Positions 22,165 to 61,399 of a DNA stretch of 64,000 nt are shown piece after piece. A program made the position numbers and the translations under genes. The DNA is taken from the NCBI RefSeq assembly GCF_963921235.1, contig NC_086108.1, forward strand, positions 75,766,001 to 75,830,000. The letters are read 5' to 3'. How positions within the stretch are numbered: position 1 is the first letter of the stretch; each line of letters opens with the position of its first letter. Source of the DNA: Mobula hypostoma. Taxonomy: Eukaryota. The notes beneath the pieces were generated by a model, which was not told the origin of the DNA, did not search any database, and was given only the letters and a program-made list of their open reading frames with translations.

Positions 22165-23734
22165 AAGAAAGCCAAGGTATTCCCCTTCTTTACAGTTTTC
22201 ATTGTTTTACACCATCGAATCACAGTGGATTCAGCTTGTATTTTTTAACACTGATCAACAGAAAAACTCTTTCAAGCCAAAGTGAAAACAGATCTCTACA
22301 AAGTAATCAAACTTAATTCCAAATATAAAACACAATGTAATTGATTAAATAAGTAGTCACTCCCTTCAAGTCAGTTTTTAGTAGAGGCACCTTTGGCAGC
22401 AATTACAGCCTTTGAGTCTGTGTGGATAGGTGTCTATCAGCTGCTCCATCAGGTTGCACGGGGATCATGAGTGAACAGCCTTTTTCTAAGTCCAGCCACA
22501 AGTCCTCAATTGGATTGAAGTCTAGACACTGACTTGGCCACTCCAGGACATTAACTTTGTTGTTTTTAAGTCATTCCTAAGTAGCTTTGGCTTTATGCTT
22601 GGGGGTTATTGTCTGGCTGGAAAACAAATCTTCTCCCAAGTCGCAGTTCTCTTGCACACTGTATCAGGTCTTCCTCCAGGATTTCCCTATATTTTGCTGC
22701 ATTCATTTTATCCTCTGCCCTTTACAAGCCTTCCAGGCTGATGGCCAAAAAGCTCAATTTTGGTTTCATCAGACCATCGAACCTTCTTCCTGCTGACTTC
22801 AGTCTTACATATGCCTTGTGGCAAAAACTAGCCAAGATTTCAAGGTAGTTTTTCTTCCCCCACCTCGCCCCCCAACAGTGGCTTTCTCTTTGCCACTCTC
22901 CCATAAAGCTGCGACTGGTGAAGCACCAAGGCAACAGTTGTATGTGTAGTCTTTCCCATCTCAGCCACTGAAGCTTTTAATTCCTCCAGAATTGTCACAG
23001 ATCTCTTTGTGGCCTCCCTCACTAGTCCCCTTCTTGCACGGTCACTCAATTCTTTGAGGACGGCCTGCTCCAAGCAGATTTACAGCTGTGTCATATTCTT
23101 TCCGTTTCTTGATGATTGACTTAACTGTACTCCAAGGGATATTCAGTGACTTGGAGATTATCTTGCATCCATCTCATGACTTTCCAATTACCTTTTCACA
23201 CAGTTGCTTGGAGTGTTCTTTTGTCTTCATGGTGTAGTTTTTGCCAGGGTACTGACTCACCAGCAGATGTATTTTTTTTCCCCCCATTTGAAACACCTTG
23301 ACCGCACACAGGTGATCTCCATTTAATTAATTATGTGACTTCTAAAACCAATTGGCTGCACCAGTGATGGTGTGATGAGTCATTAAAGGGATGAATACCT
23401 ATGCAATAAGTTTGTCAGTAATTTACATCACTTTGTCAAGATCTGTTTTCACTTTGACATGAAGTCTTTCTGTTGATCACTGCTTTTAAAAAAGCCAAAT
23501 TAAATCTGCAAACACGAGGAAATCTGCAGACGCTGGAATTTCAAGCAACACGCACAAAAATTGCTGGTGAATACAACAGGCCTGACAAAGGGTCTTGGCC
23601 CGAAATGTCGACTATACCTCTTCCTATAGATGCTGCCTGGTCTGCTGCGTTCACCAAATTAAATCCACTGTGATTCAACGTTGTAAAACAATAAGAGATC
23701 TTCCAAGGGGCTGAATTTCTTTTTATAGGCACTG
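22165..23734 (-). mobile_element. Degraded Tc1-family transposon with long TIRs
   Basis: Transposase remnant LVREATKR...LEELKASVAEMG...GLYGRVAKRKPLL-like (QLYGRVAKRKPLL). Right end CACTG|TA; internal inverted matches (CTGATCAACAGAAA / TTTCTGTTGATCA, AAAGTGAAAACAGATCT / AGATCTGTTTTCACTTT). Left terminus eroded. Confidence 0.85.
23507..23653. mobile_element. Short fold-back PLE tail insertion inside a Tc1 TIR
   Basis: 12-bp TSD CCAAATTAAATC (23495-23506 / 23654-23665); minus-strand 3' end joined to a plus-strand segment starting at CCTGACAAAGGG. Confidence 0.85.
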
Positions 23735-24929
23735 TACACAATCCAAATGAATGGCACAACAGGCTCAAGGAGCCAAATAGTTTATTGCTGTTCCCACACA
23801 AGGCAGAATGAATTCAACACTAATTCATCTCATAACCTGAGACGATCTCACATAACAAAAGAGAAGAAACAGGTATTAAATGTCCTATAAAGTACAACCC
23901 ATTCATCATTGTGAAGAGTGAAAAGCAAAAATTTAAGAGCACCGGCAATATGAATCTTGTAGGCAGCACAGTAAGACAGGAATAAAACAAGGAGTACTCA
24001 ATCAGAAAGACATGATAGGAATCAATGTGGCCTCATGGAAAAGCCACATAAGTAACACCTGTTATGGTCTCAATAAAAAAACCTTAGAAATGACTAGCAA
24101 GATTTCTAGTGTCTGATATCAAGATCATTAAAAATTAGTTTCACTTTGAGTTAAGCTTTCAGGGTTTGTATGGATGCAGTCTGACTCCAAATTGTTCCTT
24201 TTCAGATACTCCAACTCAATCTGAAAGCATTATAAAAAAGGAACAAAAATACTTTCCATATTTTCTCACACCAACAAAAAATTGCTGCAGCAGTTAAATT
24301 AACAATTCTGTTCCTGTTTGCCAACATAAACAACCATTGTCAGAGACAATTATTTTGTTTTTCAAAATTCCCTATCTCAAAAATCATTTTGAATGGCAAA
24401 TGAAACTAAAACTACTTGTACTATAAAATGTACAAGCCAAAAATCACAAGTCTAGAAGGATTTAATTTAAATTGAATGAGCTACAATTCCTTGTCTTGCC
24501 CATTTACTTCAATGGTAAAGTAAGTTAAACCAGCAACACTTTATAATACAAACATAAATAAAAGGCTTATTGGGGTGACTGAAGAATGCATGGAGAATGC
24601 CATTTTATATCCCAGTTAAATATGACATCTCTTTTGTTAACTATTTGAGGAAGTTTCATCTTAAAGTAAATGAAGCCCCTCTTTAAAACACAGAGCAGTG
24701 TTACTTAAATAATTTCATATGCACTTTTTTCTGAAACTTGAATTTCCTCTTCACCTTTCCTACTTCTGACAAACTTCTTGCTAAAAATGAGGTGCATGAA
24801 ATGTATTTGCACTTATAAATTGCTTAAAATAACATGCATGTTACAAATTACTAAATTATGCTCAATCCCTTCATTACTGAGTTTATTATCCTAACTCTCA
24901 AATTCCAGTTAAAGCTGTACAAGATAAAA

Positions 24930-26230
24930 ATAGTCCATTTAGACCATTGTATCGATACATCATGTCTGTCTTAACTAATCCTACTTGTCTGCACAAACCC
25001 CTCTATGCCTTACTCACTCAAGCACCTGACAAGATGCCTCAAATGTTACTGTTCCAAACTCCATCACCTCATCTGGCAGCTCAACCTGGAAATCCAACTC
25101 CCCAGTGTGTTTGAAACCCTTTAAACTTCCTCCCTCTAACCTTATATATATGCCTTCTGATTTTAGACTCTCCTACCATGGGAAAGAAACTGACTATCAT
25201 ATTTAAGCCTCTTAATTTTACTATGTTTTATCAAGTCACCTCTCAGTGATGTCATTGCAGCATGGATAAGTGGGCAGAAAGGTCAGTTTCTGTGCTGTAT
25301 GACCTTGACTCGTCTTCCCATCCTCATGAACCTTTACTGCATCCTCTTTGGCTTAATTGTATCCTTCCTGTCGTGTGGTAACCAGAACTGCACACAATAC
25401 TCAGAACAGCTTGACAAGCACTTTCTACAGCAGTAACATGACATCCTGTAACTCTTCTACTCTATGCCTCAGCCAAAGGAGGTAAGCATGTTATATGCTT
25501 TCGCCAATACCATCTACCCAATTTGCCACTTTCAGGAAATTAGGAACTTGTATTTCCAAGTCAATCTTTTTGTTCAACAACACTGCCTAGGACCCTGCCA
25601 CTTACTATGTGCATCCTGCACTGGTTTAACTTCCTAAAATGCATCACTTTGCACTTGTACAAGTTAAAATTTCATCCAACATTCCTCAGCCCACATTTTC
25701 AGTTGAACTATATCATGTTGCAACCTTAGACAACCTTTATCACTGTAACCTTACATAAATTTTTGTATTAGCTGCAAATTTGCTAATCAATCATTAATAT
25801 ACATGACAAAGAACCCAGCACAGCAGTTGTCACAAGCCTCCAATCTGAAAAATCACTTCTATGACCATTCTCTGCCTCCTACCACAAAGTCAATTTTGTA
25901 TCCAAATTGCCTGATCACCCTGGATCCTACAGAGTAGGCAGGAAGGTTAGAACATCATGTGCAACCTTCTCAACGGCCTTACTAAAGAGAACAGCTTCTG
26001 CCCTGGTCTTATCAATGATCTTAATCACCTCTTTAAAAAGCTCAAATTTGAGAAACATTATTTCCTATGCGCAAAGCCATGGTAATCATTCCTAATCAGT
26101 CCTTGATTTTCAAAATGTATACAAACCCTGCCCCTCAGAAACTCACTAACTTTCCAACCAGTGCTGCAAGGCCTACAGGCCTGGTTTCTTTGCTACCCTT
26201 CTTAAATTAAGACAGCATTAGTCTTCCCAG
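24930..26230 (-). mobile_element. Old CR1 LINE fragment
   Basis: Reverse complement of YCVQFWLP (ACCAGAACTGCACACAATACTC) and upstream RT motifs; highly decayed. Confidence 0.7.
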
Positions 26231-26821
26231 TGGAGGTCAATTATTCTTTATACATATCAACATTAATATAGCAAAATTATGAAAAATCATACTGTCTCAC
26301 AGAAAATCTGTGAAAAACAAGCAGAAAAGGAGCAATTTTCAGTTGGTTAAACAGTTGGGTCTTCTAGTAAAAAATATAGGGCAATGTCAAAGTGGCGGGA
26401 GGAAGTCCATGTTATATTGTCTTGTAAGATGAAGATAAAACCTTTAATGATGCTGCAGAACACAAGCTAAAGCAATACATACAGTCTCTTGCCATTCAAT
26501 AAAAGCATTGTTTACCTTTTACTTCAAAAGCACCTTCCCACAGTATGTGCATATTGATTAATTCTAGTAATATCAAAGAATCATTTGTACTACCTTGGGT
26601 ATATCATGGGTCTCTTGGCTAAAGAACTCCAAGAATTCACTCTGCTCAAGCTGAATCAACTTCTCATCTCAGTCTTAAATGTCCAATCTCTGAATCTGAA
26701 GAAATAGCTTCTGGGAGTGAAAATGACTGTCAGAATAGTGTCCCCACATCCACCCTTCAATACCAAATAGAATGTCATTTCAATGTGATGACTTGTTCTA
26801 AAAGCAATACAAGATTGATCT

Positions 26822-27755
26822 AAAACAAGAGAAAATCTGCAGACGCTGGAAATCCAAGCAACACACACAAAACACTGGAGGAACTCAGCAGGCCAGGCAG
26901 CATCTATAGAAAAGGGTACAGTTGATGTTTAGAGACGAGACCCTTCAGCAGGACTGGAGAAAAAAAGACGAGAAATCAGAGTTTAAAGGTGGTGGGAGGG
27001 GAAGGAGGAACACAAAGTGATAGGTGAAACCAGGAGGGGGAGAGGTGAAGAAAAGATCTGGGAAGTTGATAGGTAAAAGAGATACAGGGCTGGAGAAGGG
27101 GGAATCCGATAGGAGAGAGCAGGCAGCCATGGAAGAATGAAAAAGGGGGAGGAGCACCAGAACAAGGTGATGGGCAGGCAAGGAGATAAGGTGAGAGGAG
27201 GGAATGGGGTGGGAAAAGATGGGGGGGAGGGGAAGAACCCATTACCAGAAGCTCAAGAAATCGATGTTCATGCCATCAGGTTGGAGGCTACCCAGATGGA
27301 ATACAAGGTGTCACTCCTCCAACCTGCAAGTGGTCTCATCACGACAGTAGAAGGGACCATGGACTGGCATGTCACAATGGGAATGGGAAGTGGAATTAAA
27401 TCTGGTAGCCACTGGGAGATCCCATTTTTTCCTGACAGAGTGTAGGTGCTCGACAAAGCGGTCTCCTAATCTGTATCAGGTCCCAATGATATACAGCAGA
27501 CCGCACCAATAACAGTAGATGACCCCAACAGACTCACAGGTGAAGTGTCACCTCACCTGGAAGAATTGTTTAGGGCCCTGAATGGCAGGGAGGGAGGTGG
27601 TGTAGGGACAGGTGTAGCATTTGTTCCACTTGCAAGGATAAGTGCCAGGAGGGAGATCAGTGGGGAAGGACGAATGGACAAGGGAGTCACTCGCGTAGGG
27701 AGTGATCCCTGAAGAAAGTGGGGGGGGAGGGGGGGAATGTGCTTGGTGGTGGGAA
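26822..27755 (-). mobile_element. 5'-truncated Penelope-like element (GIY-YIG region + tail)
   Basis: Homologous to 4480-5418 in the opposite orientation. Confidence 0.9.
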
Positions 27756-28806
27756 TTGTAACATTATCTGAGCTTCCGCTCTCCAAGGACAGTGCCTGAT
27801 CCAAGTATTTGCACTGCACTAATGTGCCTTTGGTTTCAGCAACGGCTCCGACAAGCAACTCACAGCTTTTATTTATCCATTCTTTCTCTCAGATGTCCTC
27901 ATTACTTTACCAGCCAGATCTTCAGCATCCATGCCTTTGGTGTGCCACCCTAGACTGTCCCAAACAGAGTGCTTTCCTAAGACCGACGCATCTCTACAAC
28001 TAAAAGCCAACATGTTTTTTTTTCCTCAGTTACCCAATTCTTAAGTTTGTTCTCCCACAGATACTGCCATACTGCTACTTCCTATTTTTTTTATATTAGG
28101 CAAAACTGGTTGGTAAACAAGAGAGCAGCTTGACAGACATTATTCAGTCGAGACTAATTAAGCTGTGCATACCTAACAACAGATATTCATGATACTAAGG
28201 CAAGTATGAGGAACTAGTAGAAAACACTACACTGTGACACAGGTAGACAGGGTGATGAAAATGGTGCTAGGCACACTTGCCTTCAGCAAGGCACTGAGTA
28301 CAAGAGTTGGGACATATAGTTACAGCTGTAAAAGACATTGTTGACACTACACTTAAAGAGTACTGTCTGCAGTTCTGATCACCTAGCTACTATAGAGAAG
28401 TGTCATTAAGCTGGAGAGGGTGCAGATTCTACTCATTTGGAGGTTACAGTGATGCAGTATGGCACCAAAGACACAAATTTCTATAGGCGTGCAGTGGAGA
28501 ACATTCAGACTGGTTGCAGCACAACATTTCAAGAAGCTACAGAAGTTTACAGATACAGCCAGCTCCATCACCATCATCTGCAGATTTTCTCTTGCCTGTG
28601 ATTCCGTCAGCATCAAGGTCTTGAAGAGGTGGTGTTTCAAACCAGTGGCATTCATCATCATTTCACCATCTTGACATGTCCTCTTCTTTATATTACAATC
28701 GGAGAGGTAGTATGGGAGCCTGAAGATTCAATCAATGATTCAGGAACAGCTTCTCCTCTACCATCAGATTTCTGAATGGTCCGAGAAAATTACCTCATTA
28801 CTACTA

Positions 28807-30982
28807 GCAACACACATAAAAGTTGCTGGTGAGTGCAGCAGGCCAGGCAGCATCTCTAGGAAGAGGTGCAGTCGATGTTTCAGGCCGAGACCCTTCGTCA
28901 GGACTAACTGAAGGAAGAGTGAGTAAGGGATTTGAAAGTTGGAGGGGGAGGGGGAGATCCAAAATGATAGGAGGAGGGGGAGGGATGGAGCCAAGAGCTG
29001 GACAGGTGATAGGCAAAAGGGGATACGAGAGGATCATGGGACAGGAGGTCCGGGAAGAAAGACAAGTGGGGGGGGGAACCCAGAGGATGGGCAAGGGGTA
29101 TAGTCAGAGGGACAGAGGAAGAAAAAGGAGAGTGAGAGAAAGAATGTGTGTGTAAAAAATAAATAACGGATGGGGTACGAGGGGGAGGTGGGGCATTAGC
29201 GGAAGTTAGAGAAGTCAATGTTCATGCCATCAGGTTGGAGGTTACCCAGACGGAATACAAGGTGTTGTTCCTCCAATCTGAGTGTGGCTTCACCTTTACA
29301 GTAGAGGAGGCCGTGGATAGACATGTCAGAATGGGAATGGGATGTGGAATTAAAATGTGTGGCCACTGGGAGATCCTGCTTTCTCTAGCGGACAGAGCGT
29401 AGGTGTTCAGCAAAGCGGTCTCCCAGTCTGCGTCGGGTCTCGCCAATATATAAAAGGCCACATCGGGAGCACCGGACGCAGTATATCACCCCAGCCGATT
29501 CACAGGTGAAGTGTTGCCTCACCTGAAAGGACTGTTTGGGGCCCCGAATGGTGGTAAGGGAGGAAGTGTAAGGGAATGTGTAGCACTTGTTCCGGTTACA
29601 CAGATAAGTGCCAGGAGGGAGATCAGTGGGGAGGGATGGGGGGACGGACGAATGGACAAGGGAGTTGCGTAGGGAGCCATCCCTGCGGAATGCAGAGGGG
29701 GGGGAAGGGAAAGATGTGCTTAGTGGTGGGATCCCGTTGGAGGTGGCGGAAGTTACGAAGAATAATATGTTGGACCCGGAGGCTGGTGGGGTGGTAGGTG
29801 AGGACCAGGAGAACCCTATTCCTAGTGGGGTGGTGGGAGGATGGAGTGAGAGCAGATGTACGTGAAATGAGGGAGATGCGTTTAAGAGCAGAGTTGATAG
29901 TGGAGGAAGGGAAGCCCCTTTCTTTAAAAAAAGGAAGACATCTCCCTCGTCCTAGAATGAAAGGCCTCATCCTGAGAGCAGATGCGGTGGAGATGGAGGA
30001 ATTGCGAGAAGGGGATGGCGTTTTTGGCGGAGACAGAGGAATTCCTCCCTCCCCACTGATGTCCCCCCCATCCCTCCCCACTGATGTCCCTACTGGCAGT
30101 CCCCCCCCATCCCTCCCCACTGATCTCCCTCCTGGCAGTCCCCCCCATCCCTCCCCACTGATCTCCCTCCTGGCACTTATCCGTGCCAGCGGAACAAGTG
30201 CTACACATGCCCTTACACTTCCTCCCTTACCACCATTCAGGGCCCCAACCAGTCCTTCCAGGTGAGGCAACACTTCACCTGTGAGTCGGCTGGGGTGATA
30301 CACTGCGTCCGGTGCTCCCAATGTGGCCTTTTATATATTGGCGAGACCCGATGCAGACTGGGAGACTGCTTTGCTGAACACCTACGCTCTGTCCACCAGA
30401 GAAAGCAGGATCTCCCAGTGGCCACTCATTTTAATTCCACATCCCATTCCCATTCTGACATGTCTATCCACGGCCTTCTCTACTGTAAAGATGAAGCCAC
30501 ACTCAGGTTGGAGGAACAACACCTTATATTCCGTCTGGGTAGCCTCCAACCTGATGGCATGAACATTGACTTCTCTAACTTCCGCTAAGGCCCCACCTCC
30601 CCCTCGTACCCCATCTGTTATTTATTTTTATACACATATTCTTTCTCTCACTCTCCTTTTTCTCCCTCTGTCCCTCTGAATATACCCCTTGCCCATCCTC
30701 TGGGATCCCCCCCCTTGTCTTTTTTCCCGAACCTCCTGTCCCATGATCCTTTCGTATCCCTTTTGCCTATCACTTGTCCAGCTCTTGGCTCCATCCCTTC
30801 CCCTCCCCCTCCAACTTTCAAATCCCTTACTCACTCTTCCTTCAGTTAGTCCTGACGAAGGGTCTCGGCTTGAAACGTCGACTGCACCTTTTCCTAGAGA
30901 TGCTGCCTGGCCTGCTGCGTTCACCAGCAGCTTTTATGTGTGTTGCTTGAATTTCCAGCATCTGCAGTATTCCTGTTGTTTG
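28807..30982. mobile_element. Large fold-back (head-to-head) Penelope-like insertion
   Basis: Minus-strand PLE 28807-~30040 joined to plus-strand PLE ~30045-30982 (GIY-YIG GVIHCVRCSQCGLLYIGET). TSD CCTCATT(A/C)CTACTA at 28793-28806 / 30983-30996. Confidence 0.9.
30847..30883 (+). ncRNA. Minimal hammerhead ribozyme motif in PLE tail
   Basis: AGTC-CTGACGA-A-GGGTCTCGGCTT-GAAACGTC-GACT: both core boxes, helix I AGTC/GACT and a GUC site; helix II weakened by G-U pairs. Confidence 0.6.
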
Positions 30983-32261
30983 CCTCATTCCTACTACTTC
31001 TTTTTGCACTATTTCTGTAGTTTATAATAATTTTATATATTTGCACTGTATTGCTGCCACAAAACATTTCACCTTATTTGTCAACGATAATAACCCTGAT
31101 CCTGAGTAATCAAAGGATGTTGGAAGTCACACAAAAGTACATTAAACAAAGAACTTTATACAGAAAAAACTATCAATATAACAGTGCAAGACCAAATTGC
31201 AACACCTGGTTCTTTTAAGCATGTACTTCCACAACTTAATACAAACTGCACTTAATTTTCAATTAACTTGTTTAAATCCCAATTTCCAATGACTTAATAT
31301 TGTCTCTTAATTCTACCTTTAACTAGAAGAAATTATAAGCAAATTTAAGAAATTTATATTACAGTGGGTGCCTCTTCCCAAGAAGACTCTGAAAGCAATA
31401 TTTTTACAACTGTCCATTACACTGTCCTGATGGTCAATAATCCTTTTCTGAAACCGCATATGCTTCCTTTGCAGTTTTAGAACTTACTTGATAAAGAAAA
31501 GTCTACCTTCCTGGCCTGAAAATGAAGCACCATTGGCCGTTAACATTCATTATTCACTTACAACTCTTTGCAAAATGGAACAAAATTAACCACTTTAACC
31601 TACAGGAAGACTAATAAAAGATCCAAGCAAACATCTGCTGAACTGAGAAATTCTGGCCAAAATCAGACATAGATGACAGGAAATCCTCTTGATACAAGTA
31701 TCTTTCAGATAATATCAGCAGAGAACCCATTAATTTGATTAGATTTGGAAAAAAAATCTTTGCTTTCAAATTGCACACATTAAAAAATCCAAGTGTATTA
31801 CTGCATTATGACAAAAACTAAATGGACAAAAAAAAGCTGCGTTAGAAAGCAGCTTGCATGGACACAGTACCAAAAAGAGCTTCTTTTGCAATTTTAGAAC
31901 AGTACCTTTCAAAATATAGAACTTTCTCCAGGATGTTTCATGTAAAATAACCATTTTCAAATGCACTGCTAATTTAATACATCATAGAGATCATCATTTC
32001 CCAAAAGCAAAAACATTACTTTACAAAATATCTTATAAAACAGACTAACTGCATGGCAAATATTACAACCATCAAGATTAAAAGAAACAAGATTGAATAA
32101 AGAGTTAAGGAGAAACCAATGCTAAAAATAAGTCCCATTGGGGGGTTATGGGAGCAGATACGCATCTTTTAGAATCAAGTCATGAACAAACCTTTAACCA
32201 TCAAACATCATTGGACTATCTGAAGTTAGTTGAGCAAGAGCTGTTAATTGGAATCTATTAA

Positions 32262-33280: not shown

Positions 33281-35272
33281 TAACCGGATCAATCCGAATC
33301 AGAACTACCCACATGCAGACTATTGCACCTATCAAAATCCTGATAAGAGATGGCTGCAAGGGGATCTAATAAGACTCTTAAATTACATAAAACTTTGCGA
33401 AGAGTAATCATAAAAGATCACATACAAAAAAGGGCATTAGCCAAGAAACCTTGCATCAAGAGACAAAAAAATGAGATTCTGCAGATGAGCGAAATCCAAA
33501 GCCACACACACAAAATGCTGGAGGAACTCAGCAGGACAGGCAGCATCAATGGAAATGAATAAACATTTGATGTTTCGGACCGAGGCCCTTCTTTGGGAGT
33601 GGAAAGGGAGAAGATGCCAGAATAAAAAGGTGGGGGGGCGGGAGAAGAAGAAAGAGAGCTAGGTGATGCACAAAGCCAAGTGGATAGGAGGGCAAAAAGG
33701 CAAAGGTGACAACCTAATGAAATTTGAGAGAATGCTGTGCCCTCAGAATGCTAAAAAGCAAAATAAGAGAATTGAGAGCAGAATTTAACCACATGTTAGC
33801 TACTAAGAGAGAATCAGAAAGATAAACATAAATTGTAAGTTCTCAACTTGTAACAAGTAACCAAATCAGAGAGAAAAAAAATAAACTATCTCCTCGACCA
33901 ATAAGATAAAAAGGAGAGAAAAGAGCAGATGATAATGATGGTGTGCAGCATATCCCTTTATGGAAAGAAGAGAACATCAAAAGGAGAATTGTAAAAAAAT
34001 AAATAGGCAAAATAGAAGTGCCTATTTTACCCAGACAGCACTGAAAACTAGAAATTATCATAGGGATTAGTGGAAACCGAATTCTACAGAAGAATTTTAA
34101 GGAGAAGCTGGATAAACATGAGGGGGAATAACAGAAGATTGTTTTCAAGGGATTAAATGGGAAGAACAGGATCAAATGGCCCAAGCATGCTGAATATAAA
34201 ATCATGTCTCAACCCAAATGTCAACTGTTTATTCATTTCCATAGATGCTGCCTGACCCGCTGAGTTTCTCCAACATTTTGTGGGTTCCTCTGGATTTCCA
34301 TATCTGCAGAATCTCATGAGTATACAAAATGTGCCTTGCAATTCTACAGATTCAATAATTTTGCAGTACTATGAATATAGTAAGTGTTTCAGCTGATGAT
34401 TCACTATAACAACTTGATTTAATGGGTGTGGGTCCAATGATGGCTCAAAGGTTAATTCACTGCACAGTATGAAGAGATACTGAATAAGTAGTTCCAAGTT
34501 CAAGTTTTTCCTCAGATAGGGTGGCTTTAGGAATCTCTCAACAGCCAAGAATATTCCTATATCAGGTTATGTGAGAATCATGCAACACAAGTGGCAGCCT
34601 TTAGCTAATAGTACTGCTTAAAGAAACCTTTTCAATTATTTCTTTTCAAATGCATGTCCAATATCCTGTTGATAATCACAAGCAAATCTACTTCCAAGCA
34701 GTTAACATCACATTGGCCCCAACTGTGCAGTCTTCAGCCAACTGTTCCCTTGAAACTGTTGGTATTCAGCTATTCAAACTGAGGTCTAAAAGCAGAAGTT
34801 CAGGTCTCACTGACGCATTCAGGCAGGGAGATGAATCTTGTTCACCACCTTGTTGGACGCCAGCCATAGAGAACTGTAGCACACCAATAGGCCCAATTGG
34901 TCATCTGGGCTGTGCCAACCTGCTTTTCTGTCTAGTTCCATCTATCCACACCCAGACATAGTCCTCCATAACCCTCACTCATCCATATACCCATCTAAAC
35001 TTCTCTTAAATGTTGCAATTGAACCCACATCCACCACTTCTGCTGGCAGCTCATCTATATTTGCACAAGACTCAAAGAAGCTCCGCTTCAGATTCCTCAT
35101 AAATATTTCACATTTCACCCTAAAGCTACGACCTCAGTTGAAAAAGCTTACCCATATGTACTCCTCAATTTTACACACTTCTATATGATCTCATTCTCCG
35201 AGGGTGCATGGAGTAATGTCCTAACCTATTCAACCTTTCCCTACAACTCAGGCCCTCAATCCTGGAGACATT

Positions 35273-36245
35273 ATAGAAACATAGAAAATAGGTGCAGGAG
35301 TAGGCCATTCGGCCCTTTGAGCCTGCACCGCCATTTATTATGATCATGGCTGATCATCCAACTCAGAACCCCGCCCCAGCCTTCCCTCCATACCCCCTGA
35401 CCCCTGTAGCCACAAGAGCCATATCTAACTCCCTCTTAAACATAGCCAATGAACTGGCCTCAACAGTTTGCTGTGGCAGAGAATTCCACAGATTCACCAC
35501 TCTCTGTGTGAAGAAGTTTTTCCTAATCTCGGTCCTAAAAGGCTTCCCCTCTATCCTCAAACTGTGACCACTCGTTCTGGACTTCCCCAACATCGGGAAC
35601 AATCTTCCTGCATCTAGCCTGTCTAATCCCTTTAGGATCTTATACGTTTCAATCAGATCCCCCTGCAATCTTCTAAATTCCAACGAGTACAAGCCCAGTT
35701 CATCCAGTCTTTCTTCATATGAAAGTCCTGCCATCCCAGGAATCAATCTGGTGAACCTTCTTTGTACTCCCTCTATGGCAAAGATGTCTTTCCTCAGATT
35801 AGGGGACCAAAACTGCACACAATACTCCAGGTGTGGTCTCACCAAGGCCTTGTACAACTGCAGGAGTACCTCCCTGCTTCTGTACTCGAATCCTCTCGCT
35901 ATAAATGCCAGCATACCATTCGCCTTTTTCACCGCCTGCCGTACCTGCATGCCCACTTTCAATGACTGGTGTATAATGACACCCAGGTCTCGTTGCACCT
36001 CCCCTTTTCCTAATCGGCCACCATTCAGATAATAATCTGTTTTCCTATTTTTGCCACCAAAGTGGATAACTTCACATTTATCCACATTAAATTGCATCTG
36101 CCATGAGTTTGCCCACTCACCCAACCTATCCAAGTCACCCTGCATCCTCTTAGCATCCTCCTCACTGCTAACACTGCCACCCAGCTTCGTGTCATCCGCA
36201 AACTTGGAGATGCTGCATTTAATTCCCTCATCCAAGTCATTAATA
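35273..36245 (-). mobile_element. Young 5'-truncated CR1 LINE with uninterrupted 290-aa RT C-terminal ORF, nested in an older CR1 (about 34865-36420)
   Basis: ORF 35363-36235: KFADDTKLGG...RPHLEYCVQFWSP...NFFTQRVVNLWNSLP; tail TTTTCTATGTTTCTAT. Confidence 0.95.
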
Positions 36246-37267
36246 TGAAGGAATTATCATACATTTTCTCTGCACTCTTTCAAGCTTACCAATATCTTTC
36301 CCTATAGGTAGGTGATCAGAATACTACAAATTCAGCCTTGCCAATATCTTGTACAAGTTCATCCTTGCTCCTATACTCATATATGAAGTCCAAAGTAATT
36401 TATGAAGACCAAAGTGGTAAAAGCAGTCAGTGTTCAGAGCTGGCACAGGATCTAAAACTTAATTGATTTCAATGGAATATATGGAAGGCAAGTAAATTTT
36501 TAGTAAATAACATGCTTCCACATATTTCTAAGGGCTTTTGAGTTTATTTTTATCTTCCGTTCCACTGTTCAAGTTTTTAAATGCCTTTTGAAGTCCAAAA
36601 TGCTTAAATTGGTAAATTCATACAAAGCTTGCATTTAAAACAAAGCTCTGCCCCCAGCATTGTCATCTGTCAGAATTGCAAAACAGACTCAATGGGCCAA
36701 ATAGCCCAATTCTGCTCCTGTATGTCTTATATTTCAGGGACAGAGCCTCTGCAAAATACTTTTCATGGCTGGCTGCTGGCCATAGAGGGCAGAGGTACAA
36801 GTAACTTCAGCTGTAAATTGAGACCACAAACAACAGTGCCAGGTTGGGATTTGCTGATCATTCCAATAACACTTAACACTCCATTTTAAAATTTATTCAT
36901 AGGAGTAAGCAGGGCAGGGGTTTGTCAAAGAGAGAATGGCAGTATTACTGAAAACGCCAGCAGCCAAAGTTTCTGGAGTTGGTTATAGAAGTTCCAGTAA
37001 TAGTACCACTACTTACATTTTAATATAAATGTCATTGCTTGACACTTATGTTATGGCATTCATTGGCTTGTTTCAGATGCTACTGAAAGTGGGGACTGGT
37101 TGCTTCATTATCCGTTCAGTAGTGAATGGAAACTGACAGGGCAATTTATTGAATACCGTAGAATCATCAGCAAGCATCCTCATTTGTGTAAAAGACCAGT
37201 TCATTAATATGCAGCTGAAACTGCTAAGATCTATGACACTCTAATTACACTTGGGACTGGGATACCA

Positions 37268-39299: not shown

Positions 39300-39900
39300 C
39301 TTGAGGTGGAGCTGGCTCTCAACTCACAATTCGGAGATCGAGAAAACTCCGGTCAACATCAACACCACCATTCCAACCCAGTCCTGCCTCCAGTCCTAAT
39401 ACAAATAGGAAACGTGTCACGCCCCTACTCCACCAGTGTTTAACTACGTTGGTCCACGTTAATCGACTAGAGTGCGCGGCCCGGTCCAACAATCGGCCAC
39501 ATTCCCAGGTTCCACACAGTGCATTACAGAAATGACTCCCCCTCAACCAATGCCAGTGACAAGCAGCCCGGACTGACTCACCACCTCCCGTTTAACTGAG
39601 CCGCCAAACTCGCACTTACTGAGTGCTCAGGCGTCCTGGCCGTTCCCCAGTTCCTTTTGTCGCCCAGCTGCCCAACTACGTCGCTCTAGTGGCGCAACGG
39701 AACGACGGTGGAGAGTGACAGCGGGTTTCCACCACTCAGCAGCCGAGTGGGCGGGATTACTCAGCACCGCGTGACGGGGAGCGGCAAACCCCACAGCTGC
39801 CTTGTGCTTCTGCGCATGCTTGTGGCTGCCGGCTCTAACTATGGAAACACCCGCCTAGCCACGGAGCGGCTTTCGTTTATCGATGGTAAACTTGACATTA
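39300..39900 (-). promoter_or_regulatory. CpG-island-like promoter and probable non-coding exon 1 of TESK2
   Basis: Strongest CpG-rich non-repeat segment in the window. Minus-strand donors GTG|GTGAGT (exon end 39582) and TCA|GTAAGT (39620), GC box TGGGCGGGA 39748-39756, NRF1-like TGCGCATGC 39811-39819. The TESK2 start exon has an acceptor, so an upstream exon is required. Confidence 0.6.
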
Positions 39901-41564: not shown

Positions 41565-42762
41565 TCTATCTATAAGGAGTTTGCACATTCTCCCCATGAC
41601 TGCATGAGTTTCCTCCAACTGACCATAAGATATAGGAACAGAATTAGACCATTTGACTCATTGAGTCTGTTCTACCATTTCATCTTGGCTGATCCATTGC
41701 CCTTTCAGCCCCAATCTCCTGCCTTCACGCCCTGACTAATTAAACCTGTGTGAATTTTCTCCCACAGTCTAAAGATGTTCCAGTTGGTAGGTTAATTGGT
41801 CGTTGTAATTTTTTTATTATTTCAAAATATACTTTATTCAAAAATAAATATGTACAATAAACCATTCAATAACTTTTCATCCTTTACATACGTTTCCATT
41901 ATAGTCAGTACATATCCGTATTTATAGCCACCCACGTGGCACTCCAGTAGTTCAGCTTACCATATCATTGTTGAGGGGTATACTCCCCGCCCACCGACCA
42001 CCCCCCCCCCCACTCCCACGGGTGGAGAAACTCATACTGTGGTCCTTCCCCACCGGGCCCTTGCGGTGGCTGCACCGAGTTTCAGTGCGTCCCTCAGCAC
42101 GTACTCCTGCAGCCGAGAATGTGCCAGTCGGGTGCTGGTAGAGCATCAAGTTTCGGGCCGACCAAAGAGCATCTTTCACCGAGTTGATGATCTGCCAGCA
42201 GCACCGGATGTTGGTCTCCGTATGCGTCCCCGGGAACAGCCCGTAGATCAGAGAGTCCTCTGTTACGCAGCTGCTGGGGATAAAATGTGACACTAGCCCG
42301 TCCATCCTCCTCCACACCCTCTTTGCGAACTGGCAGTGTGCAAAGAGGTGGGTCACAGACTCCTCCTCACTGCAGTCCTCCCGTGAGCAGTGGGGTGCGG
42401 AGACGACGTTCCGGGCGTACAGGAGGGCTCTGACTGGGAGGGCCCCTCTCACCGCCAGCCAGGCGAGGTCTTGGTTCCTGTTGGTGAGATCTGGCGATGA
42501 GGCATTTTGGCAGATGAACTGGACAGTCTGCTCAGGGAACCACCCCACTGTGTCCATCACGTCCTTCTCCTGCAGTGCCTGTAGGACACTACGTGCCGAC
42601 CACTGCCTGATGGCCCTGTGGTCAAAGGCGTTCTCCTGGAAGCACTTTGTAAATTGCCCCGTGATTAGGCTACGGTTAAATCAGGGGTTGCTGGGTGGGT
42701 GTGGCTTGAAGGACCGGAAGGACCTAATCCATGCTCTAGCTCAATAAATAAATAAAAATAAA
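41565..42762 (+). mobile_element. V-SINE split by a CR1 tail (about 41620-41745) and an L1-Tx1 fragment
   Basis: V-domain at 41570-41616 and 41755-41808; tail resumes at 42647 and matches 37440-37527. Confidence 0.75.
41809..42646 (-). mobile_element. 5'-truncated L1/Tx1-clade LINE (C-terminal CCHC zinc knuckle)
   Basis: DLAWLAVRGALPVR...PHCSREDCSEEESVTHLFAHCQFAKRVW, poly(A)-like end (T run on + strand), TSD TTGTAA at 41803-41808 / 42647-42652. Confidence 0.85.
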
Positions 42763-43149
42763 TTTCAGCATTGAATATTAATCTTTAATTGTCCTTGGGA
42801 AGGTAATGATAACCCACCCTCTTGAACTGTTGCAGACTTGTGATAAAGGTATATCCACAGTGTTATTACAGTAATGCAGAACTCCAGAATTTGGAACCAA
42901 TTAAAATAAAGGACTATCTAAATGTACAGGAGTGAAGCTTGCATATAATGATATCATAAGTCCCAAGTGTCCCTCCCCATGGTGCCCATGAAACCTATAG
43001 GATGTCTGTCAAGCCTGCCTTCATATACCATTCAAGGCACTCTGCCTTGTCTTCTTGCCTGCCTGTACGCACAATGCTACCTGTACCAGAGGCCCTGCAA
43101 ACTTGTTTCTAGCCCATGAAGTTCCATGAAGCCCTAAATTTGTGAAATT

Positions 43150-46100
43150 AGCTTTCCAGTCTTAATTCAAGATTACTTAATGTCATTTCCAGTACACAAT
43201 TGTAAAGGAGAATGAAATAATTATTACTCGAGATCTGATGCAGCAAAAAAAGAACAGTAAGATGAACACAGTAATAAAAAATGCAAGAAATATAAATACA
43301 TAAGATAGCTTATATACATAGCTTGATTGCATGTCTACACATGTCTACAAAGTGATGCTAGGCACAAAGTGTCTGTACATAGGTGATTGACAGGAAATGA
43401 TAAAGTGGTGGTGGAGGGGTAGGTTAGTGGGTCGAGGTGTTGATCAACCTTACAATTTGGAGAAAGTCATTGTTTTTGAGTCTGGTGGTTCTGGCTTGGA
43501 TGCAACATAGCCTCACACTTTGTAATGGAAAATAGAAGATAGAAGGTGCTTGTCCCATGGGCCAAGCCCTTCGGTCCACAATGTCATGCTGAAGTAAAAA
43601 ACCAATGAATCCTAATTAATTTAATTTCTTTTCCCCACACATTGACCATATCGCTCCCTTCTCTGCATTGTTATGTACCTAAGTGTCTCTTAAATGCTCC
43701 TGTGCTATCTGCCTCTACCACCACTCCTAGCAACCACTCTCTGTGTACTTCCCGAGCAGGCTAAAGAAATTTGGTATATCTTTATTGACCCTTACCCATT
43801 TTTATCAATGCAGCATAAAAAAGCATTCTACCTGGATGCATAAAAACTTGGTAGGGCAACATGACCGCAAGAAACTGCAAAGTGTTGTGGACTTCATGGA
43901 AACCATCCTCCCCTCTATATCTATTGCCAGCTTGTACTTCTTACCCTCCCCCGCCTTATTATTCTGACTTTCGCTCCCTTCCTTTCCAGTCTTGATGAGG
44001 GGTCTTGGCCCAAAACATCATCTATTTATTCTCCTACATAGCTGCTGTCTGAGTTCAAAGTTACAATTTAATGTCAAAGAAATATATACAATATACATCC
44101 TGAAATTCTTTTTCTTCACAGCTATCCACGAAAACAGAGTGCCCCAATGAATGAATGGCAGTTAAGTGTTAGAACCCTACAGCCCTCCCCAGCTCCCCCC
44201 TCCCACCCATAAGCAGCAGCATTTTGTGTGTTCTTCCCCTCTGTGGACTCTTATCTACACTTCTTGCAGCTTCAGTAAAGCAGCTAGTATAGTCAAAGAC
44301 CCAATCCATCCTGGACGTTCTCTCTTCTCCCCTCTCCCATAGGGCAGAAGACTCAAAAGCCTGAAAGCACATACAACCAGCTCAAGGACTGCTGCTTCTA
44401 TCACACTGTTATTAGACTCCTGAATGGGCCTCTTGTATAATAAAATGGATTCTTGACTTCACAATCTACATTGTTATGATTTTGCACCTTATTGTTTGCA
44501 AATATTGCAATTTCTCTGCAGCTGTTACACTTTATTCTGCATTGTTATTGTTTGATCTGTATGAACAGTATGCATAACAAGCTTATTACTGCATCTTGAT
44601 AAATGTGACAATAATAATCAATATAATTTGCCTAGCACAATTCCTTTCTCCTTCCCCCTTTCACCTTAAAAGCATGCCCTCTTGTACTAGATACTTAAAT
44701 CCTGGGGAAAAGATACTGGCTATCTACCAATGCCTCGCATAATTTTATAAACTTAAATCAATCCCCTCACACTCACTGCTCTAGAGAAAACAGCCCCAGC
44801 TTTTCCAACTTCTCCTCATAGTATGTCTTCTAAAGCAGACACCATCCTGGTAGACCTCCTCTGTATCCTCTCCAAAGCCTCTATATCCTTCCTATAATGA
44901 GGAAACCAGAACTGGATGCCATCTCTAAATGTGACTTAACCAAAGTTTTACAAAGCTGCAACAGAACTTTCTGGCTCTTGAACTCAGTGCCACAACTAAT
45001 GAAGGTAAGCATGCCGTGTTCCTTCTGTCAATCTGTGTGGCCAGTTCTAAGGAGTCATGTACCTGGACCTCAAGATCCCACTGTAAAGGGTTCAATCATG
45101 AACTGTGTACTCTCTCTTTATGTTGGATCTCCTAAAGAGCAATGCCTCATTCTTGTCCAGAGTAAATGCCATAAACCACTTAGCCCATCTCTATGACAGA
45201 TCTCAATCCCAATGTATCTTTTGACAATCTTCTATTCAATCCACAATGCCACCAATATTTCTGTTGTCTTCAAATTTACTCACCTTCCCCCATATTGTCA
45301 TGCAATATAAGGTACCAGTACAGATCCCTGTGGAACACTATTAGTCACAGACCTGCATACATTATATTGTCATTGGACAGAGTCCAGAGGAGGTTAGAGG
45401 CTGATTCCAAGAATGAATGGGTTAACATACGAGGAGTGTTTAGCAGCTTTGGGCCTGTACTCACTGGAATATATAAGAATGTGTTTATAAGATTTCATTG
45501 AAACCTACTGAATGTTAAAGGGACCAGATAGAGTGGGTGTTGGAGAGGATGTTTCCTATTCAGGGGGTATCCAGAACTAGAGGACACAGCCTTAAAATTG
45601 AGGGGCAACCTTTTAGAACAGAGGGAAGGGAGAATTTATCAAGCAGACAGTAGTAAATCTGTGGAATGTTCTGCCACAGACAGCCATGGAGGCCGAGTCC
45701 ATGGGTATATTTAAGGTAGATGTTGAGAGTTTTCTGTTCAGTCATGGCATCAAAGAATATGGCAAGAAGGCAGATGTATAGGGTTGAATGGGATCCAGGA
45801 TCAACCATGAGAGAATGAAGGAGCAGACTAGATGGGCTGACTAGCCTAATTCTGCTCCTATGTCTTATGGTCTTATGCAGAATAAGGCCCATCTCTTCCA
45901 TGGGTAAGCCAATTTTGTTTCCAATCAGCAATGTCACTCTGGATCCCATGATTTCTAATTTTTGATTGAGCCTACCACCATGGGATCTTGTCGAATGCTT
46001 TACTAAAATCTATTTATACAACATCTACTACTTTACCTTCAAATACCTTCATTGCATCCTCAAAAAACTCAACCAGATTAGTCAGGCATAACCTGCAGAG
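43150..46100. mobile_element. Mosaic of Rex-Babar, CR1 and PLE-tail fragments
   Basis: RLKKFGI...FYQCSI (Rex, 43743-43920), PLE tail about 43930-44055, CR1 minus 44640-45350, CR1 plus 45370-45875. Confidence 0.7.
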
Positions 46101-47768
46101 GCATCAAGACTATAAAACTAGGACACAGTATGCAGCTTGCTTTAGAGCCTCCAAAAAGCCCTGAGATCTCTGATTTTTAAATGGACCATTCAAATTAAAA
46201 TCCAGATAACTCAAAAAGGAGCCCAAGGACCTGTGAACAAAATGAAGAAGAACCCAGTGGACAAAATGGTAAGAATGGTGGTCTGTATCCCTTCCAAGCT
46301 GTCTAAAATTATCAATATCAGATTATGCATGAGTTTGGGTTTCTCATGAACCGCCCTCAAAAGTGATTTACATTGTAATTCTAGCCCTCTTTGCAAAAAG
46401 TTAGACACCGCTCTTCAGGGCAGCAGATGTTGTTGGTTTGGATTGATTTTCAGAGGATCTGTGGCAAGTTGATATAGTGCAGTTGTGGATGGCACAGAGT
46501 TTGTTGTGACATTAGTAATGAATTGACAAGACAACGCAGGGTCCCAATCAAGCAGACTTCTTTATTGCAGTTATCAAAGTATTTGTTCATATTCACAACA
46601 GCATGGTGGAAAGGTTTTGGAGGTAATTGAGTCACTTTCAACACAACATTTTGTCTTTGACCTGTTCTCATTGAAACTGTTCATATGGATGATAAGGTTA
46701 AGCTTTGAGTGATGTTAATCCCTCTAATTATCAAAAGAAGGTGTTTAGACTCTTTCTTGCACCTGTGGCATGAATAATGCTGTGTATTACCAACATGTTG
46801 CGTGATAAGATCGTCTGGTGGGATCATTTTTTAAACAAGTGCATACATGCAGGTCTGTACTTCCTTACAAATGGAGAGGATGGAAAATTCAGAAAATAGA
46901 TGACTTTAAGTGTCCCACACAACTGAGTTATAACATTGGCATCAACAAAAAAACTATAAGAGAAAAATGGCTAGATTTTTTTCCATATAAAAAGTATACA
47001 AGGAAAAAAATCGATTTTACTTAAATAGATTGTGACAATATTATCTGAATTTCCCATCTATTGCTATTTTGTATGTCTATCTGTCTAACACATATTTTGT
47101 ATGTTTCCACACTATTACAAATGCATTCCTTTGCTTTTCCGGTACTGGAGACAATATTACAATTGCTGTTAGTCTGTAGCTAAACAAAGATCCAGAATAG
47201 TTCCTTTGTCTTGGGTGCACCGTTGTTTATAAATAATATTCTTTGCTTTAGTGGAAGCTATCTACAATAAACTGAAAAATATGTAGGAAAGAAATCTTTT
47301 CCATGAAATGTAACAGTAAGTTCAGATTTAAGGGATGGCAGGAACATCAAGCGCTGGCATCAAATTGTAATTTTGCTTTGCATTAAATAGGTTACAAGAT
47401 CATAGATGTACAGTTGAAGTCAGAAGATTACATACACCTTAGCCAAATACATTTAAACTTAGTTTTTCACAATTCCTGACATTTAATCCTAGAAAACATT
47501 CCCTGCCTTAGGTTGGTTAGGATCACTACTTTATTTTAAGAATGTGAAATGTCAGAATAATAGTAGAGAGAATGATTTATTTCAGCTTTTATTTCTTTCA
47601 TCGCTTTCCCAGTGGGTCAGAAGTTTACATACATTTTGTTGGTATTTAGTAGCATTGCCTTTAAATTGTTTAATTTAGGTCAAATGTTTTGGGTAGCCTT
47701 CCACAAGCTTCTCACAGTAAGTTGCTGGAATCTTGTTCCATTCCTCCAGACAGAACTGATGTAACTGA

Positions 47769-47974
47769 CATCAAAGTTGCTGGTGAACGCAGCAGGCCAA
47801 GCAGCATCTATAGGAAGAGGCGCAGTCGACGTTTCAGGCCGAGTCCTGACGAAGGGTCTCGGCCTGAAACGTCGACTGCGCCTCTTCCTATAGATGCTGC
47901 TTGGCCTGCTGCGTTCACCAGCAACTTTGATGTATGTTGCTTGAATTTCCAGCATCTGCAGAATTCCTGTTGTT
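47769..47974 (+). mobile_element. Short fold-back PLE tail insertion in the left arm of the Tc1
   Basis: 12-bp TSD TGATGTAACTGA (47757-47768 / 47975-47986); perfect 76-bp inverted repeat 47768-47843 / 47858-47933. Confidence 0.92.
47842..47877 (+). ncRNA. Minimal hammerhead ribozyme motif (best-preserved copy); predicted cleavage after C47873
   Basis: Helix I AGTC/GACT, core CTGACGA 47846-47852, helix II GGGT-CTCG-GCCT, GAAA 47866-47869, palindromic ACGT helix III, GUC triplet. Confidence 0.7.
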
Positions 47975-49954
47975 TGATGTAACTGAGTCAGGTTTCTAGG
48001 CCTCCTTGCTCGTACACACTTTTTCAGTTCTGCCCACAAATTTTCTGTCAGATTCAGGTCAGAAAATGATGTCAACTCTGGTTTATCCTTGGGAGCACTT
48101 TCCAAATGCCTGAAGGTACCACGTTCATCTGTATAATCAATAATACACAAGTATAAACACCATGGGACCACGCAGCTGTCATACCGCTCAGGAAGGAGAC
48201 ACATTCTGTCTCCTAGAGATGAATGTACTTTGGTGCAAAAAGTGCAAACCAATCCCAGAACAACAGCAAAGGACCTTGTGAAGATGCTGGAGGAAACAGG
48301 TAGACAGGTATCTATATCCACAGTAAAACGAGTCCTATATCGACATAACCTGAAAGGCTGCTCAGCAAGGAAGAAGCCACTGCTCCAAAACCACCATAAA
48401 AAACCCAGACGACAGTTTGCAAGTGCACATGGGGACAAAGATCTTACTTTTTGGAGAAATGTCTTCTGGTCTGATGAAACAAAAATTGAATTGTTTGGCC
48501 ATAATGACCATCGTTATGTTCGGAGGAAAAAGGGTGAGGCTTGCAAGCCAAAGAGCACCATCCCAACCATGAAGCATGGGGGTGGCAGCATCATATTGTG
48601 GGGGCTTTGCTGCAGAAGGGTCTGGTGCACTTCACAAAATAGATGGCATCATGAGGAAGGAAAATTATGTGGATATATTGAAGCAACATCTTAAGACATC
48701 AGCCAGGAAGTTAAAGCTCGGTCGCAAATGGGTTTTCCAAACGGACAATGACCCCAAGCATACCTCCAAAGTTGTGACAAAATTGCTTAAGGACAACAAA
48801 GTCAAGGTATTGGAGTGGCCATCACAAAGCCCTGACCTCAATCTGATAGAAAATTTGTGGGCAGAACTGAAAAAGCGTGTGCGAGTAAGGAGGCCTACAA
48901 ACCTGACTCAGTTACACCAGTTCTGTCTGGAGGAATGGAACAAAATTCCAGCAACTTACTGAGAGAAGCTTGTGGAAGACTACCCAAAATGTTTGACCCA
49001 AGTTAAACGATTTAAAGGCAATGCTACCAAATACTAACAAAATGTTTGTAAACTTCTGACCCACTGGGAAAGTGATGAAAGAAATAAAAGCTGAAATAAA
49101 TCATTCTCTCTACTATTATTCTGACAGTTCACATTCTTAAAGTAAAAGTAGTGATCCTAACTGACCTAAGACAGGGAATGTTTTCTAGGATTAAACGTCA
49201 GGAATTGTGAAAAACTGAGTTTAAATGTATTTGGCTAAGGTATATGTAAACTTCTGACTTCAACTGTAGATCTCCAGGAGCAGCTGCTGATTAATTTTCA
49301 AGCCTTTCTTTATTATTTCAAGTGAAGTGTATTTGGGATATTTAGGGAATATCTTGTAATTAGCATTACTCTGTAACGTATCTGGAAGTTCAACTATGTT
49401 TTACATTTTTTTAAACTTTAAAAATGAATGAAGTTTTTCATTTTTCTACTTATCTTTCCATTCAGTGATTACTTTGCTATTTTTCTTTGAATGTAACAAT
49501 GTAGCAAATTCTTAATCTGCACTGCCAAACCTGCCTCATGAATTTTTCTGCAGGTGTGACACCACTTGAATCCAGCTAGTTTTATCAATTAATTGTTGTC
49601 ACTGGAACTTGTTATTTATCTTTAGTCTGAGTATAAAACAACTATGACTTCTCTTATGTCTTTGTTTCTTCTTTGTTTAGGCTTTATACCCCACTCTCGA
49701 CTTCTAAAGAACTTCAGGATCAATATCACTAGATCTAGCATACCTCATAAGACTATTCTCAGTTCCCTAATTTACTCCTTAGAAAACCGACAAATGCATG
49801 GCTAGATTCTGGTTAATTTATTTTTGTAACAATTTGGTTTATGTGCTGTGTGTGATATATGTTTTTATGGGTGCACCGTGGTCTAGAGGAGCATTGTTTC
49901 GTTTGGTTGTATACAGTATATATACAGTCAGTTGACAATAAACTTGAACTTGAA

Positions 49955-61333: not shown

Positions 61334-61399
61334 TGTCTAGGACAAGAGAGTACAGCCTCAGGATAGAGGAGTGTCCATTTAAAACAGAGATGTGGAGCA

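Follow-up and report, generated by a model that had tools for sequence, protein, structure and literature searches.

Inverted arms in known elements

The combination of an inverted pLTR, a one-sided tail and a TSD is an already known hallmark of Penelope-like elements (PLEs). Pen2a_Av of Adineta vaga is described with an adjacent inverted, 5'-truncated copy, a one-sided tail of 30 to 40 bp and a TSD around the unit; the reported TSDs measure 9 bp for Pen2a and 10 bp in a related copy, and the inverted pLTR has a 15-bp overlap with the direct pLTR and is the shorter of the two by 37 bp (PMC3846280, PMC8557442, PMC2377424). For PAc, a Poseidon element of Anolis carolinensis, two adjacent internal RT starts have been located downstream of the hammerhead, one of them in a stem-loop, and the tail corresponds to the stretch between the two start sites; both target strands are cleaved and extended in vitro, ribozyme cleavage is not required and the protein is predicted to be a dimer (PMC11167929). 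In the twin priming of L1, both target ends prime, the TSD is kept, the cDNAs are joined by microhomology and the 5' segment is inverted (PMC2912911, PMC11702581). Minimal hammerheads of metazoan PLEs have been reported as opposite-strand motif pairs 100 to 700 bp apart (PMC4209133). How the inverted arms and tails arise is described as unresolved in PLE studies (PMC11167929, PMC3846280, PMC8557442).

The window analyzed here, 64,000 nt of Mobula hypostoma (GCF_963921235.1, NC_086108.1, 75,766,001 to 75,830,000, forward strand), contains three PLE inserts, each with two outward-facing arms, one extending to the family's common end and the other stopping 35 to 59 nt short of it, and each framed by a TSD of 12 to 14 bp, which confirms the initial annotation. 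We regard them as ordinary insertions of a high-copy EN+ element of the Neptune/Nematis type, for which cDNA synthesis is primed from each of the two target strands and the products are joined via short complementarity, and assign a probability of about 0.6 to this reading as a whole. The geometry of insert 3 is close to the published arrangement of inverted and direct pLTRs in Pen2a_Av, whereas the Mobula inserts differ from that description in lacking a full ORF or a partial tandem between the arms, in the length of their tails and TSDs, and in the barely overlapping arms of insert 1. Since the structure is known, three further examples add little, and their value is that they point to a very copy-rich genome.

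Anatomy of the three inserts

Element positions are numbered such that e1 is 30848 (the A of AGTCCTGACGA) and e135 is 30982. Insert 1 (23507 to 23653) lies between exact 12-bp repeats at 23495 to 23506 and 23654 to 23665 (both plus strand). In the alignment to the element frame, its tailed arm (23507 to 23582, minus strand) covers about e57/62 to e136; its tail-less arm (23578 to 23656, plus strand) runs from e1 to e79, shares its final three letters with the TSD, ends 56 to 59 nt short of the common end and extends about 56 to 61 nt further 5' than its partner. The turn (23578 to 23582) consists of five letters common to both arms, 4/5 of which match the family's hammerhead start. With an overlap of only about 18 to 23 nt, insert 1 is hardly a fold-back. 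Four mismatches occur in about 18 shared letters, and both arms are equally divergent from the copy at 60844 (65/72 and 69/79 matches).

Insert 2 (28807 to 30982) is flanked by 14-bp TSD copies at 28793 to 28806 and 30983 to 30996 (plus strand), which match at 13/14 positions. The tail-less arm (28807 to 30039, minus strand) comprises the end of the putative RT region, the linker, the GIY-YIG nuclease, the 3' UTR and the hammerhead, and stops at e99, i.e., 35 to 36 nt before the common end. The tailed arm (30140 to 30982, plus strand) contains a nuclease frame ending at 30588, a 3' UTR without a 26-nt family segment, the hammerhead, the stem-loop and the 36-nt tail (30947 to 30982, plus strand), which is present on this arm only. 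Apart from the 26-nt indel, 768/807 aligned columns are identical and the arms agree at 13/14 polymorphic family sites, and the tail-less arm extends about 390 nt further 5'. The turn (30040 to 30175, plus strand) is a complex junction, in which the element restarts in tandem with a 38-nt unit that is present threefold (3.0 copies, 94% matches), next to a repeat with a 25-nt period.

Insert 3 (47769 to 47974) resides in one terminal repeat of a Tc1/mariner element (47411 to 49266, plus strand) and has an exact 12-bp TSD (47757 to 47768 and 47975 to 47986, plus strand), whose left copy lies inside this repeat. The tail-less arm (47769 to 47846, minus strand; e14 to e91/92) is 43 to 44 nt short of the common end, and the tailed arm (47842 to 47974, plus strand) spans e1 to e133/135. 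Both arms are identical at 77/78 positions, the sole difference being located at the turn, and share letters found in no other copy of the window. The right Tc1 repeat supplies a natural empty site: after subtraction of insert 3 and one TSD copy, the left and right repeats match in 412/441 columns, and the target 12-mer occurs once in the right repeat (48908 to 48919, minus strand) with one mismatch.

In all three inserts the TSD adjoins the 3' end of an arm on both sides, and the tail-less ends share only 3, 1 and 1 letters with it (inserts 1, 2 and 3). When up to 200,000 pairs of 18-nt windows were drawn at random, 2 had an exact 12-mer in common. The arms overlap by about 20, 78 and 800 nt (inserts 1, 3 and 2), and microhomology of 4/5 letters is found at the turns of inserts 1 and 3. 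The initial annotation placed the junction at the hammerhead start in two of the three, and indeed one arm begins at e1 in inserts 1 and 3. It is the tail-less arm that reaches e1 in insert 1 but the tailed arm in insert 3, as a symmetric two-primer scheme permits.

The element and its 3' region

The family is very abundant, with 75,311 matching contigs in the public set X1; contig depth inside the element was not equated with copy number. A full-length copy was not present in the 64-kb window. The simple copy at 3633 to 5418 (plus strand), a 5'-truncated member of an older subfamily, carries a GIY-YIG nuclease downstream of motifs in broken frames that we take, by eye, to be those of an RT; a Pfam search of the PLE frames returned no RT match. 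The nuclease scored 20.9 bits (E = 4e-4) in one of six frames, i.e., below the Pfam cut-off of 22.6, and the top Atlas match is a GIY-YIG cluster (score 0.96). The two cysteines of the CCHH motif are present between GIY and YIG as VIYCVRCSRCGLLYIG, with the histidines downstream. CKQNKCYTC in the RT-EN linker of copy 3633 to 5418 (CX4CxxC) conforms to CX2-5CxxC, a trait of Neptune/Nematis that is absent from Penelope/Poseidon, and suggests placement with either of the former two clades. PAc, in contrast, is described as a Poseidon member without this linker motif, and its loop is AC-rich, whereas that of the Mobula element is U/G-rich on the coding strand.

A minimal type-I hammerhead motif with helix I pairing lies at 30848 to 30883 (plus strand), and would be cut between 30879 and 30880. 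Both arms examined retain the core, GAAA and the pairing of helix I, cleavage being a prediction, and the motif resembles the published metazoan PLE hammerheads in its type, short helix I and palindromic helix III (PMC4209133). An Rfam search gave six matches, all below the gathering score and none a hammerhead; those to microRNAs at 47819 to 47883 merely reflect the hairpin. A degenerate hammerhead pattern had no match in either viral or metagenome contigs. In Drosophila virilis Penelope, the 5' end of helix I is reported to be tied to an intron end (PMC4209133), whereas in the Mobula element this is the position where junctions cluster. As an explanation, a splice from the antisense arm to the AG at e1-2 was dropped, with no GT donor after either turn. 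Ribozyme cleavage is likewise rejected as the cause of the turn: the predicted cut falls after e32 and the arms begin at e1, so that the turn is situated some 32 nt upstream of the cut.

Downstream, the positions at which the three tail-less arms end (e76-79, e91-92 and e99-100) span a stem-loop (30913 to 30959, plus strand), with folding z scores of -2.15 in insert 2, -2.36 in insert 3 and -0.86 in the 60844 copy. These ends cover 24 nt; the internal start is not one site. The claim of the initial annotation that the long arm starts at the RNA 3' end finds no support in this form: both PAc start sites reported in vitro are internal to the RNA, and the long end is probably an internal start, too.

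In the public contigs of set X1, depth drops about 500-fold across 30982 to 30985, with mixed AT-rich flanks beyond 30983. Among the junctions listed, 6/12 are at the hammerhead start, and at least two of the listed contigs carry a lone extra G at the e1 junction, a hint at a capped RNA 5' end. The 24 loose ends listed include no heterogeneous peak at 30923 to 30946. A loose-end peak before 30848 (336 contigs, X1) was not taken to prove that truncation is concentrated there, because the end of its consensus resembles what lies upstream in the older-subfamily copies in the window. Contigs were counted as bridging with at least 31 element letters; those over the right junction of insert 2 (X1, X5) have 27.

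Formation of the two arms

According to our preferred reading, the GIY-YIG nuclease would nick both target strands, 12 to 14 nt apart, and both 3' ends would serve as primers for the reverse transcription of element RNA, which would begin at a sharp outer start (e133 to e137) from one of them and at a looser start 35 to 59 nt upstream, around the stem-loop, from the other. The two cDNAs would extend toward each other, often halting at the hammerhead start, which is probably the RNA 5' end, until the 3' end of one pairs with a few complementary letters of the other. Given arm overlaps of up to about 800 nt, the templates would probably be two separate RNAs or two repeat units of a single tandem RNA. 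The anatomy, the TSDs, the empty site, the single-subfamily arms and the microhomology of the turns are observed in the window, and the two starts with extension of both strands are known from the in vitro work on PAc; that both events took place at one site, the number of templates and the RNA 5' end are inferred. The steep drop in contig depth at the outer end and the TSD contrast with the simple copies also speak for this reading. Neither arm of inserts 1 and 2 can be a copy of the other, because the tail-less arm reaches further 5' and the tail is found only on its partner.

The model of Arkhipova et al. 2013 for the same structure invokes self-priming on an antisense template (PMC3846280), and 'EN-mediated resolution' has been proposed as well. 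A hairpin intermediate would form first, and the endonuclease would trim its strands unequally before or during integration, with the tail on one of them. Self-priming agrees with the few complementary letters at the turn, and a single looped hairpin can give inserts 1 and 2, but the tail would have to belong to the template strand in the case of insert 3 and to the newly made strand in the other two inserts. Moreover, the tail reported in vitro is defined by RT start sites without trimming (PMC11167929), and the cap-like G at e1 would indicate a sense RNA template. We consider such a hairpin possible, though unlikely. Of the two target-primed RT events originally postulated, the need for two separately templated strands stands for inserts 1 and 2. 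Insert 3, with its short loop and its short arm nested in a nearly identical long one, would also fit one target-primed cDNA that folds and copies itself. This fails for inserts 1 and 2 because each arm has sequence absent from the other; they need a second template, which excludes self-copying in 2/3 cases unless later deletions are assumed and makes it very improbable.

Separate adjacent insertions or later rearrangements, e.g., of one copy into an older one, come to mind in such an abundant family, whose nucleases, according to the PAc study, can cut their own repeat (PMC11167929), and the overlap in insert 1 is divergent. However, a single TSD frames each whole unit and no inner TSD was seen between the arms of the three inserts, the arms are closer to each other (98.7% and 93%) than to other inserts (about 90 to 91%), and those of insert 1 are equally far from the 60844 copy. 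The arms belong to one subfamily, each insert represents one event as first annotated, and independent insertion is the least credible explanation.

Double priming, as favored here, resembles twin priming in its working without being the process known from L1. The designation as twin-priming-like with overlapping arms is appropriate insofar as a TSD surrounds an inverted two-segment insert, as in L1 (3/3 here), and overlaps are present, small as that of insert 1 is. L1, as described, first primes on poly(A), which is absent from 6/6 tailed ends listed here, it has no fixed second priming site, and the segments, copied from one RNA, overlap or miss each other by 1 to 10 bp, far from the overlaps of the Mobula inserts. 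Against double priming, it can be held that it rests on three inserts, and that in inserts 1 and 2 the tailed arm could have been shortened by deletion after insertion. The absence of a loose-end peak at 30923 to 30946 from the rows listed, the different loop composition and clade of PAc, the mismatches between the arms of insert 1 and the few letters shared at the internal ends also speak against it. In addition, the one-sided tail is unexplained by the in vitro work on PLEs, because no strand difference in the start site is reported there (PMC11167929); that account, in the parts considered here, does not treat the inverted arms, the length of the TSD or the joining of the arms either.

Tentatively, double priming might even be programmed, with a dimeric RT-endonuclease, nicks 12 to 14 nt apart, two RNAs, two built-in starts, run-off at a capped 5' end coinciding with hammerhead helix I and a cap-derived letter that aids annealing. 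If true, this would supersede the models of antisense self-priming and trimming, carry the in vitro result for Poseidon over to elements of the Neptune type and could be examined in a single genome with many thousands of copies. The 5' reach of each arm, the TSD length and the extra G at the hammerhead start could distinguish double priming from a self-primed hairpin.

Further copies in the window

A candidate fourth, very old fold-back at about 52990 to 53220 was rejected, as it lacks a convincing TSD (best 7 of 8 to 9). TSDs were sought and not found for the copies at 26823 to 27754 and 60844 to 61335, so that 1/3 of the simple copies checked has one. This is the copy at 3633 to 5418, in which the simple insertion with a 10-bp TSD recognized from the start was recovered as an exact repeat (3623 to 3632 and 5419 to 5428; 11/12 if one mismatch is allowed). 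A TSD contrast such as that between the two-armed and the simple PLE copies has also been reported for 5'-inverted and truncated copies of L1.

Structure of the fold-back insertions

The three two-armed insertions of a Penelope-like element (PLE) at 23507 to 23653 (insert 1), 28807 to 30982 (insert 2), and 47769 to 47974 (insert 3) are real and were rightly described by the initial annotation, whose coordinates were confirmed on re-examination. They are an instance of the known PLE insertion pattern, to which they add an argument from the reach of the arms and a possible cap signature. Element positions are counted from the start of the hammerhead motif (e1 = 30848; e135 = 30982). In each insert, a tailed arm reaches the outer end common to the family, located at e133 to e137 in six copies examined, and an oppositely oriented tail-less arm stops 56 to 59 nt (insert 1), 35 to 36 nt (insert 2), or 43 to 44 nt (insert 3) from e135. 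All three inserts are flanked by target site duplications (TSDs), as originally claimed, i.e., exact 12-bp repeats for inserts 1 and 3 and a 14-bp repeat with one mismatch between the copies for insert 2. The simple copy at 3633 to 5418 has a 10-bp TSD. In a chance control, 18-nt windows were paired at random, and only 2 of up to 200,000 such pairs had an exact 12-mer in common. The tail-less arm ends share 3, 1, and 1 letters with the TSDs of inserts 1, 2, and 3, respectively.

Insert 3 is hosted by a Tc1 element (Pfam HTH_Tnp_Tc3_2 and DDE_3), within its left terminal repeat. The right repeat contains the target once, with one mismatch, and is a natural empty site. The terminal inverted repeats of this Tc1/mariner element (47411 to 49266) comprise about 430 nt with insert 3 left out and are 93% identical; the left one is long enough to mirror the end of the transposase frame.

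One event per insert

Arms of different subfamilies, which the initial annotation had named as evidence against its proposal, were not found in inserts 2 and 3. The arms of insert 3 are identical at 77 of 78 letters and those of insert 2 at 768 of 807, whereas arms from different inserts are only about 84 to 91% identical. For insert 2, 21 of the 40 variant rows listed (160 further rows exist) were compared, leaving out 7 flank rows and 12 rows below 9% in the public run X1, which may be the window's own sample. Among the rows listed, the arms agree at 13 of 14 polymorphic sites, and at seven sites a private letter occurs in the tailed arm and the common one in the other arm; these private letters are decay after insertion. 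In addition, a 26-nt segment of the family sequence is missing from the tailed arm. The arms of insert 1 overlap by about 18 to 23 nt, with 4 different letters there, and are equally distant from the nearest copy in the window (65/72 and 69/79).

Origin of the two arms

The initial annotation proposed a twin-priming-like process with two target-primed reverse transcription (RT) events on a staggered cut, one starting at the RNA 3' end. Double target priming is indeed the best reading of the inserts, with a probability of roughly 60%; it works like L1 twin priming, yet two features defining the latter are missing, and the start at the RNA 3' end is unsupported. In insert 1, the tailed arm spans about e60 to e136 and the tail-less arm e1 to e79, and in insert 2 the tail-less arm extends about 390 nt further 5' (4199 versus 4586, with the 3633 copy, of an older subfamily, as reference). 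Because each arm contains sequence absent from the other, a single target-primed cDNA copying itself is ruled out for inserts 1 and 2, barring later deletion. The nested arms of insert 3 fit self-copying and double priming alike. The arm reaching e1 is the tailed one in insert 3 and the tail-less one in insert 1. A hairpin made beforehand by self-priming, as considered in the Discussion of PMC3846280, can account for all three inserts but requires trimming in insert 3 opposite to that in inserts 1 and 2. With double target priming, two target ends would prime two cDNAs, and a single rule would cover all three.

Inverted copies and tails are described as standard PLE features (PMC8557442, PMC8969392). 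In the PLE of PMC3846280, the inverted pLTR is 37 bp shorter than the direct one, with an overlap of 15 bp between them, a one-sided tail of 31 bp, and a TSD of 9 bp. According to PMC11167929, both strands are cleaved and extended, ribozyme cleavage is not required, and the tail is bounded by two internal RT starts; the outer end thus probably corresponds to another internal start rather than to the RNA 3' end. Literature listings, with subscription works (e.g., Arkhipova 2006, Evgen'ev and Arkhipova 2005) outside their scope, yielded neither twin priming as a named source of PLE inverted arms nor PLEs of this kind in sharks.

The turn between the arms

At the turn of insert 2, where the arms meet (30040 to 30175), a 38-nt element unit is restarted in tandem three to four times, which suggests repeated re-priming or slippage while joining.

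A flanking stretch is partly present in 13 of 16 listed public runs. Contigs of four runs were aligned to 30670 to 31119 at 80% likeness; the family is abundant in all of them (75,311, 64,407, 12,491, and 5,184 contigs) and ends abruptly at 30982 to 30983, followed by mixed flanks. No internal-end peak occurred among the 24 loose-end rows listed (1,335 further rows exist), which weakly disfavors a single fixed internal site. Six of the 12 joints listed (54 further rows exist) lead to 30835 to 30848 with 1 to 5 letters between, a clustering with a P of about 6e-6 under uniform placement over the element for these preselected rows; their kind is not given, i.e., they may be inversions or tandem restarts. 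Two of the six, both from run X5, land on 30848 with a lone G supplied by neither side. Position e1 agrees with an initiator consensus. A pyrimidine tract with a terminal AG (30815 to 30849) lies immediately before the hammerhead core and resembles a splice acceptor, and the same letters also suit an initiator motif. In L1, an extra G is described as the mark of a reverse-transcribed RNA cap, and in D. virilis an intron end maps to hammerhead helix I (PMC4209133). Taken together, the turn hotspot therefore most likely marks the 5' end of an RNA or a splice boundary and not the ribozyme cut, a lead from two rows. In run X5, two joints depart exactly from 30879, immediately before the predicted hammerhead cut, with restarts at 30835 and 30845; should these be tandem restarts, they could be traces of template jumps to the RNA ends that ribozyme cutting leaves.

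Classification and further repeats

The broken frames, read with X at stop codons, contain RT-like motifs and a CX4CxxC linker, together with a GIY-YIG domain that bears the internal cysteine pair. The Pfam GIY-YIG score is marginally below the cut-off, no Pfam RT model matched these reading frames, and the first Atlas match is a GIY-YIG cluster (score, 0.96). Since PMC8557442 uses the CX2-5CxxC linker to define Neptune/Nematis versus Poseidon, the linker sequence puts the element with the former. The terminal repeat has a minimal type-I hammerhead motif (for the type, see PMC4209133) with a predicted cut after e32. For a stem-loop at about e66 to e112, folding is better than in shuffled sequences for two of the three copies (z = -2.36, -2.15, and -0.86). 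The tail-less ends of the three inserts are located at its 5' stem, its loop, and its 3' stem.

Of 17 profile search matches in the window, 6 are insert arms, 7 are solo copies, 2 belong to an old pair that is doubtful, and 2 are weak. An old, diverged pair of PLE ends lies at 52990 to 53220; one end is tailed on the minus strand and the other tail-less on the plus strand, the tail-less one beginning close to a decayed hammerhead start. This pair could represent a fourth fold-back; a convincing TSD was not found. For two older outward-facing PLE ends about 500 nt apart (33459 to 33700 and 34205 to 34318), both apparently tailed, no TSD was detected. Other retroelement fragments at 18332 to 19363, 35363 to 36253, 41952 to 42680, and 55597 to 56061 carry AP-endonuclease, RT, zf-RVT, and LTR-type RNase H domains, and an imperfect 78-nt hairpin near LINE-like repeats (11229 to 11306) weakly matches mir-939 below the gathering score.
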